Shown in pieces: positions 25,926-31,772 of a stretch of DNA of 44,793 nucleotides. The stretch is from positions 1 through 44,793 of the IMG/VR virus record IMGVR_UViG_643348551_000008. One strand, 5' to 3'. The stretch comes from a virus. Taxonomy: Duplodnaviria; Heunggongvirae; Uroviricota; Caudoviricetes. The first letter of the stretch is position 1. The number at the start of each line of letters is the position of its first letter. The translations under genes and the position numbers were made by a program. A model generated the notes under the pieces. It ran no database searches. It was not told the origin of the DNA and worked only from the letters and a program-made list of their open reading frames with translations.

Positions 25926-26078
25926 TTATTCAGATTTACGCAGTAAAGGCCGGAGCACGACCAGCGCCATCGCCACCAGCACACCATCTGCCAGCACCGA
26001 CATCAGCCGTCCGGTGAAATCCACCGCCACTACCAGAAACAGCAGGATGGCAGCCAGCACAAGGCGCGCACTTTTCAC
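25926..26078 (-). CDS. Small hydrophobic protein (50 aa, GTG start coupled to the upstream stop)
   Basis: VKSARLVLAAILLFLVVAVDF...; GTGA overlap with the stop of the TerB-like gene, GGAG 7 nt upstream. Not in the ORF track because under 60 aa. Confidence 0.3.
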   Translation of the reverse strand: MKSARLVLAAILLFLVVAVDFTGRLMSVLADGVLVAMALVVLRPLLRKSE

Positions 26079-26500
26079 AGGTACTGCTCCAGCGGTAGCT
26101 GAAGCGCCTGCGCAATTTTCTTGAGCTGTGTTTCTTCATCCGGACCAATGCCATCCTGGTCAGCGATATCCAGACACAGGCACAGCACATTAACTGCGTC
26201 ATCAGTACCTGCCACGTCAGCCAGCTGACGAAGGGCTTCAGCATTGGCAGAGCGCGGCGACGCTTCATAACGGGCGCGGATATTTGCACTCATTTGTGCA
26301 ATCTCACCGGAGAACGGCGCAAAGGCAGGAAGTGCTGCAATGGTTTTCTCCAGTACCGCGACTTCTTTCGCGTCACAGGTGTCGTCAGCATATGCAATGG
26401 AATACGCGCCCCAGACGGTCGCCTCCACTGCGTCGCGGTTCTCCATCTTCTTCACTTCGGTAATGGCCTTGCGGGTTTTCTTTTTGAAAATACCAAACAT
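26075..26500 (-). CDS. TerB-like domain protein (tellurite-resistance TerB family), cargo gene
   Basis: 141-aa ORF with the recalled TerB pattern (N-terminal MFGIFKK, ...IAYADD...DIADQDGIGPDEE...). Confidence 0.5.
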   Translation of the reverse strand: MFGIFKKKTRKAITEVKKMENRDAVEATVWGAYSIAYADDTCDAKEVAVLEKTIAALPAFAPFSGEIAQMSANIRARYEASPRSANAEALRQLADVAGTDDAVNVLCLCLDIADQDGIGPDEETQLKKIAQALQLPLEQYL

Positions 26501-27178: not shown

Positions 27179-27253
<75 letters not shown>

Positions 27254-27256
27254 ATA

Positions 27257-27332
27257 TGGTGCCGACTACCGGAATCGAACTGGCGACCCGGTGATTACAA
27301 GTCAGTTGCTTTGTCTGCTAAGTTAAATCGGC
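27257..27332 (-). tRNA. tRNA-like gene, possibly tRNA-Thr (UGU) with imperfect stems (may be degenerate)
   Basis: Acceptor GCCGATT/AGTCGGC plus CCA and T-loop TTCGATT present; anticodon loop CTTGTAA but only 3 bp pair in the anticodon stem and the D-arm is atypical. Confidence 0.4.
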
Positions 27333-27513: not shown

Positions 27514-28560
27514 TTAACTATTTTCTTTTATTTCGCTTACAGTCTGGTTAAATCTCTCTTCTTCCTGCTCCACACCTATTGCATGCCGTCCCAGCGATAA
27601 TGCTGCTTTTATTGTTGATCCCGACCCCATAAAAAAATCAGCAACCAAATCTCCCGGATGGCTGCTGGCGGTAATTATCTGACGCAACATATCCGCCGGT
27701 TTCTCACAGGGATGTTTGCCGGGGTAATACTGCACAGGCTTGTGCGTCCAGACATCCGTATACGGAACAGCTGCCGATACGGAAAAATAACGCCGCAGGG
27801 ATTTGTACTCTTCCAGCAGGCTGGCATATTGCCGGTTCAGTTCACTGTATGTGCTGACCAGCTGGTGGTGCGGCTTTTCCAGTTCACCGCGTTGATGTTT
27901 TTCTGCTGCAACACGCGCAAACAACGCCTGTAATTTCAGATAATCGCCTTCGTTCGGCAACTGCCACTGACTGATACCAAACCAGTGCGAAGCCATGTTT
28001 TTCTTTCCGGTGACTTCCGCTATCTGTTTTGACGTTATACCCAGTGATTCACGCGCATCACGAAAGTAAGAAATCAGCGGAGCCATCACGTGCTGCTTAA
28101 GCTCGCGCCCCTTTGCCGCATAGCCGTCATTTTTTGGCTGATATGGCCCCTGATAATGTTCAGCAAACAGAATGCGTTCTGTTGCCGGAAAATACGCCCG
28201 CAGGCTTTCCTTGTTGCACCCGTTCCAGCGCCCGGACGGCTTCGCCCAGATAATATGGTTCAGCACATTAAAGCGCTCACGCATCATGATTTCGATATCA
28301 GATGCCAGGCGATGACCACAGAACAGGTAGAGACTTCCGGCAGGTTTCAGTACCCGCCAGAATTGCGCCAGACACTGATCCAGCCATTTCAGGTAATCAT
28401 CGTCGCCCTTCCACTGGTTATCCCAGCCCTCGGGCTTCACTTTAAAGTATGGCGGGTCTGTGACTATCAGATCGACAGAGTTTTCCGGTAAGGTCTGGAT
28501 AAATTCCAGGCAATCAGCGTTGATTAACTCACAACTGGATATTTTTACAGTATTAGCCAT
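27514..28560 (-). CDS. DNA methyltransferase (N6-adenine/N4-cytosine class, orphan)
   Basis: DPPY motif near the N-terminus and FxGSGST near the C-terminus; no adjacent restriction endonuclease. Confidence 0.8.
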   Translation of the reverse strand: MANTVKISSCELINADCLEFIQTLPENSVDLIVTDPPYFKVKPEGWDNQWKGDDDYLKWLDQCLAQFWRVLKPAGSLYLFCGHRLASDIEIMMRERFNVLNHIIWAKPSGRWNGCNKESLRAYFPATERILFAEHYQGPYQPKNDGYAAKGRELKQHVMAPLISYFRDARESLGITSKQIAEVTGKKNMASHWFGISQWQLPNEGDYLKLQALFARVAAEKHQRGELEKPHHQLVSTYSELNRQYASLLEEYKSLRRYFSVSAAVPYTDVWTHKPVQYYPGKHPCEKPADMLRQIITASSHPGDLVADFFMGSGSTIKAALSLGRHAIGVEQEEERFNQTVSEIKENS

Positions 28561-28700
28561 AGATCAATAAGCACTTCTCTGATAGGCTCATACCGCTTTT
28601 GCGCAAAGCAGATGGGCCTGAGGTTTGCTTGTGACCCCAACGCATGAGCAGATGGCTGGCAGGTGCCGCTAACACCCACCAGCCGCCCATTACCACAAAT

Positions 28701-28724
28701 TAAAAAGCCTTCACTGCGGAAGGC
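28701..28724 (-). terminator. Intrinsic terminator at the 3' end of the 65-aa gene
   Basis: Stem gccttc/gaaggc (28707-28724) followed on the minus strand by TTTTTA. Confidence 0.55.
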
Positions 28725-28908
28725 GTCTGTAACAACCGAACTGATAATCTGCCAGACCCGCCATAACAAGCTGAGTCAGTATTAACTGGCAGCGTTCGCG
28801 TGAAAGGTAAGTATTCTGCGCAATTTCCCCGACGGTCGCTGGTTCGGTGACACTTAATTCATTAAATACCACTCTGGCGGTTTCGGTCATATCCTGCTGT
28901 TTTAGCAT
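28711..28908 (-). CDS. Small putative DNA-binding protein (winged-helix-like), 65 aa
   Basis: ORF bracketed by terminator-like hairpins; pattern EPATVGEIAQNTYLSRERCQLIL resembles an HTH. Confidence 0.4.
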   Translation of the reverse strand: MLKQQDMTETARVVFNELSVTEPATVGEIAQNTYLSRERCQLILTQLVMAGLADYQFGCYRRLPQ

Positions 28909-29030
28909 GTCTTTTTCCTTTTCTGGTTAACGTGACATACCAATAACTCTTGTCTAAAAAGCCAGCAAGCTGAAAGACCGGTATTCGCAACCACCAGCGC
29001 ATTTAACGTCCTGTACCGCTTTTCGGGCAC

Positions 29031-29056
29031 AAAAAAAACCGCTCATCGGCGGGTTT
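29031..29056 (-). terminator. Weak intrinsic terminator (possible tR'-like)
   Basis: Short GC stem ccgc/gcgg followed by a U8 run on the minus strand. Confidence 0.4.
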
Positions 29057-29165
29057 AAGCTGTGTGACGTAGTAATCACTCTTAACATCATATTTAAATT
29101 TTTACGTACGTAAACCTGTACGTATAACTTTATATTATAAAAATGCAACAACTATAATATTTTAG

Positions 29166-30360
<1,195 letters not shown>

Positions 30361-30361
30361 T

Positions 30362-30514
30362 TAGATATTTTAGATATTTTAGATATTTTAGATATTTTAG
30401 ATATTTTAGATATTTTAGATATTTTAGATATTTTAGATATTTTAGATGTTTTAGATGTTTTAGATGTTTTAGATGTTTTAGATGTTTTAGATATTTTAGA
30501 TATTTTAGATAAAT
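30362..30514. repeat. 9-bp tandem repeat array (about 16.5 units: 9x TAGATATTT, 5x TAGATGTTT, 2x TAGATATTT)
   Basis: Directly visible; abuts the IS5 right end and lies about 175 bp upstream of the porin start codon. Confidence 0.95.
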
Positions 30515-30689: not shown

Positions 30690-31772
30690 ATGAAAAAATT
30701 AACAGTGGCAATCTCTGCTGTAGCAGCATCAGTATTGATAGCTATGTCCGCTCAGGCAGCTGAGATTTATAACAAAGACAGCAATAAATTAGATCTGTAC
30801 GGAAAAGTTAATGCCGGGCACTACTTCTCCTCTAACGATAAACACGATGGTGACAAAACTTATGCTCGTCTGGGATTCAAAGGTGAAACCCAAATCAACG
30901 ATAAACTGACTGGTTTCGGTCAGTGGGAATATGAATTCAAAGGCAACCATGCTGAATCTCAAGGTTCCTCCGCAGACAAAACCCGTCTTGCGTTTGCTGG
31001 TCTGAAATTCGGCGACTACGGCTCCATCGATTATGGTCGTAACTACGGTGTAGCATACGATATCGGTGCATGGACTAACGTTCTGCCAGAATTCGGTGGC
31101 GATACCTGGACTCAAACAGATGTATTCATGACTGATCGCACCACAGGTGTTGCAACTTATCGTAACAACGACTTATTTGGTCTGGTTGATGGTCTGAACT
31201 TTGCTGCTCAGTATCAGGGTAAAAATGACCGCACTGACGTAACTCAAGCTAATGGTGATGGTTTCGGTTTCTCCACTACTTATGAGTATGAAGGATTCGG
31301 CGTAGGTGCAACCTATGCTAAATCTGACCGCACTAATAATCAGGTTATCTACGGTAACAACAGCCTGAATGCATCTGGTCAAAATGCTGAAGTATGGGCA
31401 GCTGGTCTGAAATATGATGCGAGCAACATCTATCTGGCTACTACCTATTCTGAAACCCAAAACATGACTGTTTTTGGTAAAAACCATATTGCCAACAAAG
31501 CACAAAACTTCGAAGTAGTTGCACAATATCAGTTCGACTTCGGTCTGCGTCCGTCCGTTGCTTACCTGCAATCTAAAGGTAAAGACCTTGGCGTTTTTGG
31601 TGACCAAGATTTAGTCAAATATGTTGATGTAGGTGCAACCTATTATTTCAACAAAAATATGTCAACTTTTGTTGATTACAAAATCAACCTACTTGACAAA
31701 AATGATTTCACCAGAAATCTTGATATAAACGCCGACGATATTGTTGCTGTCGGTATGGTTTACCAGTTCTAA
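30690..31772 (+). CDS. nmpC: Outer membrane general porin, NmpC/Lc (OmpC/OmpF) family
   Basis: 360-aa ORF with signal peptide [23 protein letters not shown] and C-terminal ...VGMVYQF; resembles recalled DLP12 NmpC; located next to Q. Confidence 0.8.

Follow-up and report, generated by a model that had tools for sequence, protein, structure and literature searches.

How does a temperate phage keep the gene of a DNA methyltransferase silent in the lysogen when the enzyme is harmful to the host, and which part of the locus does the controlling? This question is raised by the IMG/VR virus record IMGVR_UViG_643348551_000008 (Duplodnaviria; Heunggongvirae; Uroviricota; Caudoviricetes), whose 44,793 nucleotides, analysed as a whole and called the window below, are a lambdoid prophage read along the minus strand. 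The locus in question consists of a DNA methyltransferase (MTase) gene and, just upstream of it, a small open reading frame (ORF) for a 65-amino-acid (65-aa) protein, here called ORF65. An earlier note on this DNA, made from the letters alone, described the MTase as an orphan enzyme, suggested the small protein as its possible controller and left the 150-nt gap between the two genes out of account. This gap holds the most conserved element of the locus, a widespread, strongly covarying and apparently undescribed structured RNA, which forms the leader of the MTase gene. This leader RNA is a better candidate for the actual "controller" than ORF65. As first described, the locus has an enzyme of a known family next to an uncharacterised gene, which is ordinary to mildly interesting; the spacer is the unexpected part.

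The Structured Leader RNA

The spacer between ORF65 and the MTase gene is 150 nt long in the window and 147–154 nt in 26 of 28 sequences (the window and 27 related loci), and it is more conserved than ORF65 itself. In the first of two folds (fold i), helix P1 (UGGGC/GCCCA) closes a three-way junction, in which P2 is a long hairpin of variable sequence and P3 is the third arm, and the junction nucleotides are invariant. P4 is a near-palindromic hairpin, and P5 is a hairpin whose end lies 6 nt before the AUG of the MTase (coordinates are given in Table 1). The covariation behind this fold is strong: 83% of the alignment cells are paired, against 26–39% with slid partners, and none of 500 shuffles was as high. 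Both sides have changed in 35 of the 39 pairs, helix P1 is 99.5–100% paired, and P2 shows up to four types of pair at a single position. The covariation was replicated on a second, independent set, and the same structure holds on a plain MAFFT alignment. The G-U pairs in the spacer helices are possible on the sense strand alone.

For the search of further copies, a covariance model (CM) built from the enterobacterial copies (R1) and a second-generation model (R2) were used. One CM match per distant MTase locus was obtained in Hafnia, in Providencia and Morganella (HK97-like phages), in Yersinia, in Vibrio and in Aeromonas, and the N15-like phages of Klebsiella, Enterobacter and E. coli are also matched, the E. 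coli locus L115 with the second model only. Every match lies on the coding strand, just upstream of the MTase gene. Among about 200 further viral contigs with 50–60%-identical MTases, R1 matched 52 of 100 and R2 matched 58 of 100 others, in the same position. A motif-first scan with three single-stranded anchors (AATGGGCG...AAGGCCCA...GAGCCTA), for which roughly one match would be expected by chance, returned at least 120 loci; an M.EcoGII-family MTase gene is directly downstream in all of the 120 listed, and its start lies within 50 nt of the motif in 119 of them. The segment is present in 2,883 of 5,426 complete E. coli genomes (53%), in up to 8 copies per genome, and is never annotated; the phages that carry the leader are lambdoid, HK97-like, N15-like and Vibrio/Aeromonas phages. 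Rfam 15 gave no match (E ≤ 1) over the leader in the window and ten diverse loci, and literature searches returned no described RNA motif upstream of the M.EcoGII-type MTase family.

The AUG in the 5′ anchor of the leader (28688–28690, minus strand) is invariant apart from GUG in some phages, and opens an upstream ORF (uORF) of variable length, with 7 codons (MGGWWVL and a stop) in most Enterobacteriaceae and 45 in the window; in Yersinia phage P840 it is annotated as ORF61. Its peptide shows no conservation.

Alternative Pairing at the Methyltransferase Start

The minimum free energy (MFE) fold of the window leader (−61.5 kcal/mol, z = −4.2) is a second fold (fold ii), to which RNAalifold on the enterobacterial alignment also leads. 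In fold ii, AUGGGC pairs with GCUCAU, and the 3′ strand of P3 (GGUCA.AAGC, with GGUCA at 28632–28636) pairs with the 11 nt just before the AUG (GCUU..UGAUC, −1 to −11, with UGAUC at 28562–28566); 95% of the cells of this start-side pairing are paired in Enterobacterales. With an alignment of Enterobacterales sequences fitted to neither fold, 93.5% and 88% of the cells are paired for the two folds, with compensatory changes in each. The partner of column 106 is column 83 in fold ii and column 131 in fold i, and all three have changed together (C/G/C to U/A/U) in the group of the window; the same three-column pattern is seen for column 7 with columns 48 and 80 in another locus (L027). These three-column patterns support functional alternative pairings. 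The 5′ anchor AUGGGC had at first been paired only with GCUCAU, which was revised, since helix P1 with GCCCA and P3 covary family-wide and both pairings are kept in Enterobacterales.

No Shine–Dalgarno sequence is found before the MTase gene. Over 77 distinct leaders, the predicted pairing probability of positions −12 to −1 is 0.69, against 0.50 with shuffled upstream sequence, and the partners of the start region lie in the P3 region in 59 of the 77. Such predictions fit a leader that is able to hide or expose the start site of the MTase. On the whole, a cis-regulatory role of the leader RNA is considered quite probable.

The Methyltransferase

The phage-borne orphan enzyme, which the earlier note had rightly recognised by its DPPY...FxGSG motifs, is by its sequence an already known one, namely a prophage copy of the sequence-non-specific adenine methylase M.EcoGII. 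It is identical to M.EcoGII at 295 of 347 positions (85%) over the full length including the target recognition domain (TRD), with 348 against 349 aa, and it is 92.5% identical to the L24 protein of phage phiP27 and 72% identical to SUPREM/Anc284, an engineered ancestor. The motif order is that of the β-class, with DPPY at residues 34–37 and FMGSG near 310, and the N6_N4_Mtase domain covers residues 29–340. A PDB sequence search with the MTase returned generic β-class cores alone (RsrI, MboIIA, CcrM), with no match for the TRD.

It has been reported that M.EcoGI is a 95%-identical paralogue of M.EcoGII, that both enzymes methylate DNA and RNA at adenines whatever the context, and that they are prophage genes of E. 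coli O104:H4 which are unexpressed in the lysogen and slow the growth of the host when expressed (PMC5778455). They resemble the window MTase in being orphan, prophage-borne, of similar size and of the β-class order DPPY...TRD...FxGxG; as a difference, the published work on them is silent on an upstream ORF, a late-operon position and a leader RNA, and the word "upstream" has zero occurrences in it (PMC5778455). Murray et al. 2018 name phage 1720a-02 as carrying a very similar gene (PMC5778455), and the locus of this phage aligns with the window. Ochiai et al. reconstructed ancestors of the clade and found methylation of both DNA and RNA with every one tested; Anc291 and SUPREM, the two examined for an RNA sequence motif, showed none (PMC11551740). 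Since the window MTase is full-length with intact motifs, non-specific N6-methyladenine (m6A) activity is its expected property, and in view of its 85% identity to M.EcoGII, a motif-based target prediction, as proposed earlier, should give "any A". Protection against host restriction, also suggested at that time, agrees with the accepted anti-restriction role of this enzyme family (PMC5778455).

The lack of a partner endonuclease was borne out as well: there is no endonuclease in the window or in the 27 related loci, Pfam and PHROG profiles find no nuclease or defence-system protein near the MTase, and PADLOC gives MTase models only. The neighbours of the MTase gene are IS5, a porin gene, tRNAs, a TerB-like moron and holins. 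In the P2-like Aeromonas phage phiO18P (L121), a 50%-identical MTase lies between the holin and endolysin genes without the leader and without a winged-helix (wH) gene, so the MTase family is not always under this control; the leader RNA was likewise not found with a 29%-identical MTase (L122).

The Late Operon

Along the minus strand, the prophage starts with CI-like and replication genes, which are followed by the Q-like antiterminator gene, a convergent porin moron, a 9-bp tandem repeat and IS5, the promoter-like site P1 and the terminator-like hairpin T1. Then come ORF65, a second hairpin (T2), the MTase gene, a tRNA-like sequence and tRNA-Gly, the TerB-like moron, holins and endolysin, and finally terminase and head genes. 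This is the layout of a lambdoid late operon, with Q upstream, a promoter and then a close terminator, and lysis and head genes beyond. The order Q, optional moron, P1/T1 (with about 200 nt of conserved leader), ORF65, MTase, tRNAs, stx or another moron, and lysis genes recurs in E. coli ETEC1749, in the Stx2e phage phiP27 (L23/L24), in Stx2a, Stx2c and Stx2d phages and in phage 1720a-02. The ETEC1749 homologue is 100% identical to the Q of the window and is annotated there as "antiterminator Q family protein"; NCBIfam has no family for Q.

The Q proteins of the compared phages are 45–49% identical, and the homology between phages starts just downstream of the promoter-like site P1. In a qualitative comparison, the sequence type of the P1 region goes with the Q type: loci with an MRDIQ-type Q share ...GTTAAGAGTGGTyAC..., and those with other Q types share TTGCAAAATGCAACAAAATAAGCCATATTT..., as would be expected if the site were the Q-loaded late promoter pR′ and T1 were tR′, which is the inference drawn here from the sequences. 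The stem of T1 varies with compensation among relatives and its U-tract is kept. In the relatives the stem is 5 bp long, with GCGGG against GCGGU in the window, and this change, which shortens the stem, may make the tR′ candidate of the window leakier. Confidence in the identity of the enzyme and in its late-operon placement is high, and a position downstream of Q and of a late-promoter/terminator unit would explain the silence of such genes in lysogens.

The Winged-Helix Protein ORF65

ORF65 is a real gene, for the selection on it is purifying (dN/dS with a median of 0.098 in 134 pairwise comparisons), and the differences among its enterobacterial homologues are mostly synonymous; the "HTH-like" protein of the earlier note is thus a genuine, conserved protein, of the winged-helix type. 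The AlphaFold (AF2) model (pLDDT 93.5) has helices H1-H2-H3 (residues 9–16, 26–33 and 37–49) and a β-hairpin wing (strands 53–56 and 59–62), from which the protein is confidently modelled as a minimal winged helix. Foldseek returned generic wH domains only, at E of about 1e-3 (OhrR/MarR, IclR, the N-terminal domains of O-methyltransferases and the RNA-binding wH of SelB), with a best query-normalised TM-score of 0.80 to OhrR and no functional lead. The profile search recommended in the note succeeded in part. PHROG 331 was matched, a family of "unknown function"; NCBIfam has no family for the protein, and Pfam gave sub-threshold winged-helix matches alone (TrmB, 18.0 bits against a cutoff of 25.6; MarR_2, 14.7 against 27; DprA_WH), so that ORF65 misses the curated thresholds of TrmB/MarR, the name that NCBI annotation gives it. 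No HTH_3 (Xre-type) match was found in the Pfam search.

The family is small (61 representatives at 50% clustering) and restricted to Enterobacterales and relatives. PHROG 331 also holds the gp51-type protein of N15-like phages, which adjoins the same cassette. An M.EcoGII-like MTase follows the wH gene in 23 of the 24 genome loci found with the ORF65 protein; among these 23, the spacer is 147–154 nt in 21 and 137 nt in L023, and in L021 the wH gene overlaps the MTase gene by 4 nt, with its stop read through. The sole exception (L022, 5001–5302) is a decayed remnant with a truncated ORF65, an intact leader and a deleted MTase, and L334 holds a decayed cassette with a frame-shifted ORF65; the module therefore erodes in some genomes. 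In the cassettes without a wH gene, Q or a moron is followed by T1 and then straight by the hairpin and the leader. ORF65 is an accessory that makes sense only beside an M.EcoGII-type MTase, and an obligatory activator is excluded.

The conserved block upstream of ORF65 has the fuller form CTTGCTG-N16/17-AGAGTTAyhTGTrTGTCAC, which is −35-like and lacks a canonical −10, and it was not called as a sigma-70 promoter in the consensus scan. The block might serve as the promoter of a moron, as a pause or Q element or as a signal in the RNA; a hairpin in it was seen in HK97-like loci and dropped as not general. The terminator-like hairpins said to bracket ORF65 are both present, T2 downstream and T1 upstream, the latter weak in the window. 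The stem of T2 covaries, and the hairpin is kept at this place even in loci without ORF65.

Proposed Mechanism and Alternative Explanations

The preferred reading, to which a probability of about 60% is given, is that of a DNA-protection cassette at the head of a lambdoid late operon, which is locked in the lysogen both transcriptionally and post-transcriptionally and whose lock is tuned by ORF65. As the enzyme is harmful to the host, there appear to be two levels at which the cassette is locked in the lysogen. Transcripts started at the constitutive late promoter would end at T1 and leak-through would end at T2, full-length mRNA being made only by the Q-modified polymerase; residual mRNA would fold in such a way that the MTase start is poorly accessible. 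After induction, the Q-modified polymerase would read through, and abundant leader–MTase mRNA would be translated. The phage DNA would then be methylated at most adenines, in any context, before packaging, so that the progeny could escape many restriction systems. ORF65 would be made from the same transcript or from a promoter of its own in the block upstream, and would most likely modulate the lock by acting on the leader or on its DNA. A regulatory role for ORF65, taken by itself, is put forward tentatively, at somewhat less than even odds.

Several points weigh against this reading. With regard to the RNA, alignments derived from a CM lean to the modelled structure, fold ii was tested in Enterobacterales alone, and the N15-like leaders are predicted with the start region open. 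The promoter and terminator calls are at the consensus level. T1 in the window has a 4-bp stem, the −5.8 kcal/mol of which is matched by shuffled sequences, and many relatives have a poor U-tract at T2. The 85% identity to M.EcoGII was counted against a reference sequence machine-read from the supplement of PMC11551740, with a few obvious errors of optical character recognition. As for ORF65, no covariation between its recognition helix and any RNA or DNA element was seen by inspection, no formal test being made. Among 109 motif-found cassettes with at least 500 nt upstream, the wH gene is detectable in 64 and absent or undetectable in 45, and its place in N15-like and Vibrio phages is before the promoter/terminator unit, not downstream of it. 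An obligatory regulatory role of ORF65 is unlikely, since it is missing in about 40% of the cassettes and is placed upstream of the promoter and terminator elsewhere.

One alternative is a transcriptional controller of the C-protein type, along the lines of the controller suggested in the earlier note: an ORF65 dimer would bind a near-perfect palindrome in the spacer DNA (GCTTTGCGCAAAAGC in the window, GCTTTAGCGCTAAAGC in relatives) and switch the transcription of the MTase on or off. The winged-helix fold and the tight linkage of wH and MTase speak for it, as does P4, which is a palindrome at the DNA level with a self-complementary centre in several divergent groups (GCGC, TGCA, ATCGAT). But ORF65 has no Xre-type HTH and no endonuclease to control, it is detectable in only the 64 cassettes just mentioned, and P4 is kept in cassettes without it; moreover, one P4 sequence occurs with differing N-termini of the recognition helix, the consensus scan gives no promoter-like site in the spacer, and the G-U pairs of P2 and P3, possible on the sense strand only, indicate selection at the RNA level. 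This controller is improbable. An even smaller chance is left to the idea that the conserved spacer is a small protein-coding gene or a DNA-level site and not an RNA structure: ORFs of 45–74 aa can indeed be drawn across it in the window, and ORF61 is annotated there in phage P840, but reading frames in the relatives are broken by compensated +1/−1 indels or, in most, by a stop after 7 codons, and the substitutions, non-synonymous in that frame, keep the base pairs. On these grounds coding by the 45–74-aa ORFs or the 7-codon uORF was rejected. The covariation strongly favours RNA helices, and the idea as a whole is hardly credible.

It is also unlikely, to a lesser degree, that the leader acts alone or with another partner and that ORF65 is irrelevant; the RNA might then be riboswitch-like or autoregulatory and, for example, sense S-adenosylmethionine or S-adenosylhomocysteine (SAM/SAH), be bound or methylated by the MTase, or be unfolded by the ribosome at the AUG of the 5′ anchor. 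That the RNA–MTase link holds in 120 of the 120 loci listed, against a wH gene in about 60% of the cassettes, agrees with such an autonomous leader, and so do the three-way junction with its invariant nucleotides, the two conserved and mutually exclusive folds, the uORF opened by the invariant AUG/GUG and the methylation of RNA adenines by M.EcoGII (PMC5778455; PMC11551740). Against it, the sequence points to no ligand or protein partner, the uORF peptide is unconserved, and there is no likeness to any riboswitch class in Rfam. A similarly low probability is assigned to ORF65 being an independent moron, with its own promoter in the CTTGCTG...GTCAC block and T2 as its terminator, which would be expressed in the lysogen in a role other than MTase control; examples of such a role would be that it reads or protects m6A-modified DNA, or acts on genes of the host or of competing phages. 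A promoter-like block, a gene and a terminator are the classical moron layout, cassettes without ORF65 do occur, and according to excerpts of two reports some prokaryotic winged-helix domains sense adenine methylation (PMC11037411; bioRxiv 10.1101/2023.06.07.544091). However, the block has no canonical −10 hexamer, and the family is never seen away from the MTase cassette, which argues for a tied function.

Comparison with Known Systems

In phage Mu, the Com protein activates translation of the host-harmful modification gene mom, the leader of which has a translation-inhibiting stem. What the cassette would share with Mu is a host-harmful, promiscuous DNA-modification gene that comes last in the phage programme, stays silent up to the late phase and is further locked, post-transcriptionally, through its 5′ leader; in addition, the Vibrio and Aeromonas members have an ORF for a Com-type zinc ribbon after the leader and before the MTase gene. 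These zinc-ribbon ORFs are 36–62 aa long (for example, MTLLKELRCPHCNKLLCRHSGSVEIKCSRCKNIVKR), and one of them, with 26.2 bits, passes the Pfam threshold of Zn_ribbon_Com, which is 22.9 bits. The annotation "RNA polymerase subunit P" has been given to one. The differences are that the window has no com gene, that its leader is a much larger three-way-junction RNA, and that its switch is predicted to be Q antitermination, whereas that of Mu is the C activator with Dam/OxyR. By analogy, the leader is read here as a post-transcriptional lock of the com-mom kind, and the cassette looks like an independent solution to the problem of Mu, in which transcriptional timing (by Q here, by C in Mu) is combined with a leader lock. 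It has been reported that in Mu-like prophages of Haemophilus and Neisseria (FluMu hin1523, Pnme1 nma1821), com is found with a non-specific adenine MTase replacing mom (Drozdz et al. 2012, PMC3299994); these MTases are of the α-class (PMC3299994), while that of the window is of the β-class.

The niche right after Q, with a constitutive late promoter, an intrinsic terminator and toxic or late cargo beyond, is shared with the pR′–tR′ transcripts lambda 6S RNA and StxS, the latter being a 74-nt Hfq-binding small RNA (sRNA) that arises by processing of a terminated 258-nt transcript (Sy et al. 2020, PMC7547250). Unlike these, the leader lies downstream of the terminators and in cis to the MTase. 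It matches no described phage sRNA in Rfam, where AgvB and AsxR are included, and the prophage sRNAs AgvB, AsxR, Pas and StxS were rejected as its identity because the literature places them elsewhere. The D12-methyl RNA motif is a candidate structured RNA upstream of Dam-type phage methyltransferase genes, of unknown function, on which no paper was found. It is likewise a conserved RNA near phage MTase genes and differs by the D12/α MTase class; Rfam scans of the leader match no D12-methyl motif, if Rfam holds one. The C proteins of restriction–modification systems, which have an Xre-type HTH, bind C-boxes and time the expression of the endonuclease, are like ORF65 in being small proteins of DNA-binding type encoded just upstream of a modification gene. 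ORF65 differs from them as a winged helix without an endonuclease partner, absent or undetectable in about 40% of the cassettes.

Other Features of the Region

The coordinates of the features are collected in Table 1. The tRNA-like sequence beside tRNA-Gly(UCC) has a UGU anticodon loop (Thr-like) and several mismatched stem pairs, and may be a decaying tRNA. IS5 is bordered by a 4-bp target duplication, TTAG, at 29162–29165 and 30361–30364, and sits 52 bp upstream of the −35 hexamer of the promoter-like site P1, between the porin moron and the late promoter region. It lies outside the cassette proper and changes its surroundings, and it is not at this site in the otherwise near-identical prophage of ETEC1749. 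At 30361–30512, upstream of the porin gene, there are about 17 tandem copies of a 9-bp unit, TTAGATATT, five of which are TTAGATGTT variants, and IS5 is inserted at the edge of this array or inside it. The OmpC/NmpC-like porin moron (30690–31772, plus strand) is convergent with Q and lies between Q and the late promoter; in other phages its slot is taken by a GIY-YIG nuclease (phiP27 L22) or by two hypothetical genes. The TerB-like protein of 141 aa (26075–26500, minus strand; PHROG 632, "tellurite resistance") is encoded by a moron that follows the tRNAs and precedes the holin genes; in Stx phages this place is taken by stx.

Table 1. Features of the methyltransferase cassette and its surroundings (window coordinates unless a locus is named).
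Feature	Position	Strand	Basis or remark
M.EcoGII-family β-class N6-adenine DNA methyltransferase, 348 aa	27514..28560	-	Pfam N6_N4_Mtase, E=3.9e-45
Structured leader RNA of the MTase, ~135 nt	28558..28693	-	CM R1, 124 bits, E=1e-29; sole match in the window
Leader helix P1	28685-28689/28613-28617	-	CM fold
Leader helix P2	28654-28684	-	CM fold
Leader helix P3	28624-28652	-	CM fold
Leader helix P4	28593-28611	-	CM fold
Leader helix P5	28567-28591	-	CM fold
MTase AUG	28558-28560	-	CM fold
T2/P0, terminator-like hairpin GCCUUCCGCAGUGAAGGC with U-rich tract UUUUUAAUUU	28697..28724	-	Terminator-like scan match; -8.9 kcal/mol; ORF65 stop codon in the loop
ORF65, 65-aa winged-helix protein	28711..28908	-	PHROG 331 "unknown function", E=1.4e-37
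Conserved block CTTGCTG-N16/17-AGAGTTAT..GTCAC upstream of ORF65	28932..28969	-	Before every ORF65-type gene, lambdoid and HK97-like loci
T1, hairpin and U8, candidate tR′, AAACCCGCCGAUGAGCGGUUUUUUUU	29031..29056	-	~120 nt upstream of the ORF65 start
Promoter-like site P1, TTTACG-16-TATGAT, candidate late promoter pR′	29087..29114	-	Consensus scan, 9/12 matches
Q-like late antiterminator gene, 127 aa	31960..32343	-	PHROG 79 "anti-termination protein Q-like", E=1.6e-52
tRNA-Gly(UCC)	27179-27253	-	ARAGORN; Rfam tRNA match 27182-27253, 65.6 bits; same late transcript, downstream of the MTase
Second, degenerate tRNA-like sequence	27260-27332	-	Rfam tRNA, 43.7 bits; not called by ARAGORN
IS5 copy, 1195 bp, complete	29166..30360		Terminal repeats GGAAGGTGCGAA.../...TTCGCACCTTCC
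Com-type zinc-ribbon ORFs	L114 2358-2468; L116 2329-2517; L119 2332-2448; ~11 IMG/VR loci		

Significance

M.EcoGII is sold as a reagent and is used to map chromatin and RNA. How phages silence this host-damaging enzyme has so far been guessed at ("switched off in the lysogen"), and the present locus gives a testable architecture, in which Q antitermination is combined with two terminator-like hairpins and a conserved leader outside Rfam. The enzyme family is known; what is new is a spacer RNA coupled to non-specific adenine MTases across several lineages of temperate phages. Since the same cassette lies directly upstream of stx in many Shiga-toxin phages (phiP27, Stx2a, Stx2c, Stx2d), the transcript from which the toxin is expressed includes the terminators and the leader of the cassette.

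The leader covaries strongly, goes clearly with one kind of gene and occurs in more than 5,000 copies among sequenced E. coli, which makes it a ready subject for studies of riboregulation. A further-reaching idea, which is doubtful as yet, is that the leader may be an undescribed bistable RNA, riboswitch-like or responsive to a protein or the ribosome, which gates the translation of the host-toxic MTase and for which the PHROG 331 winged-helix proteins and the Com zinc ribbons are interchangeable or additive partners. If this were true, few other unannotated cis-regulatory RNAs of enterobacterial prophages would be as widespread as the leader. Annotations of the type "orphan methylase and small HTH" may hide the real regulatory element in the spacer.

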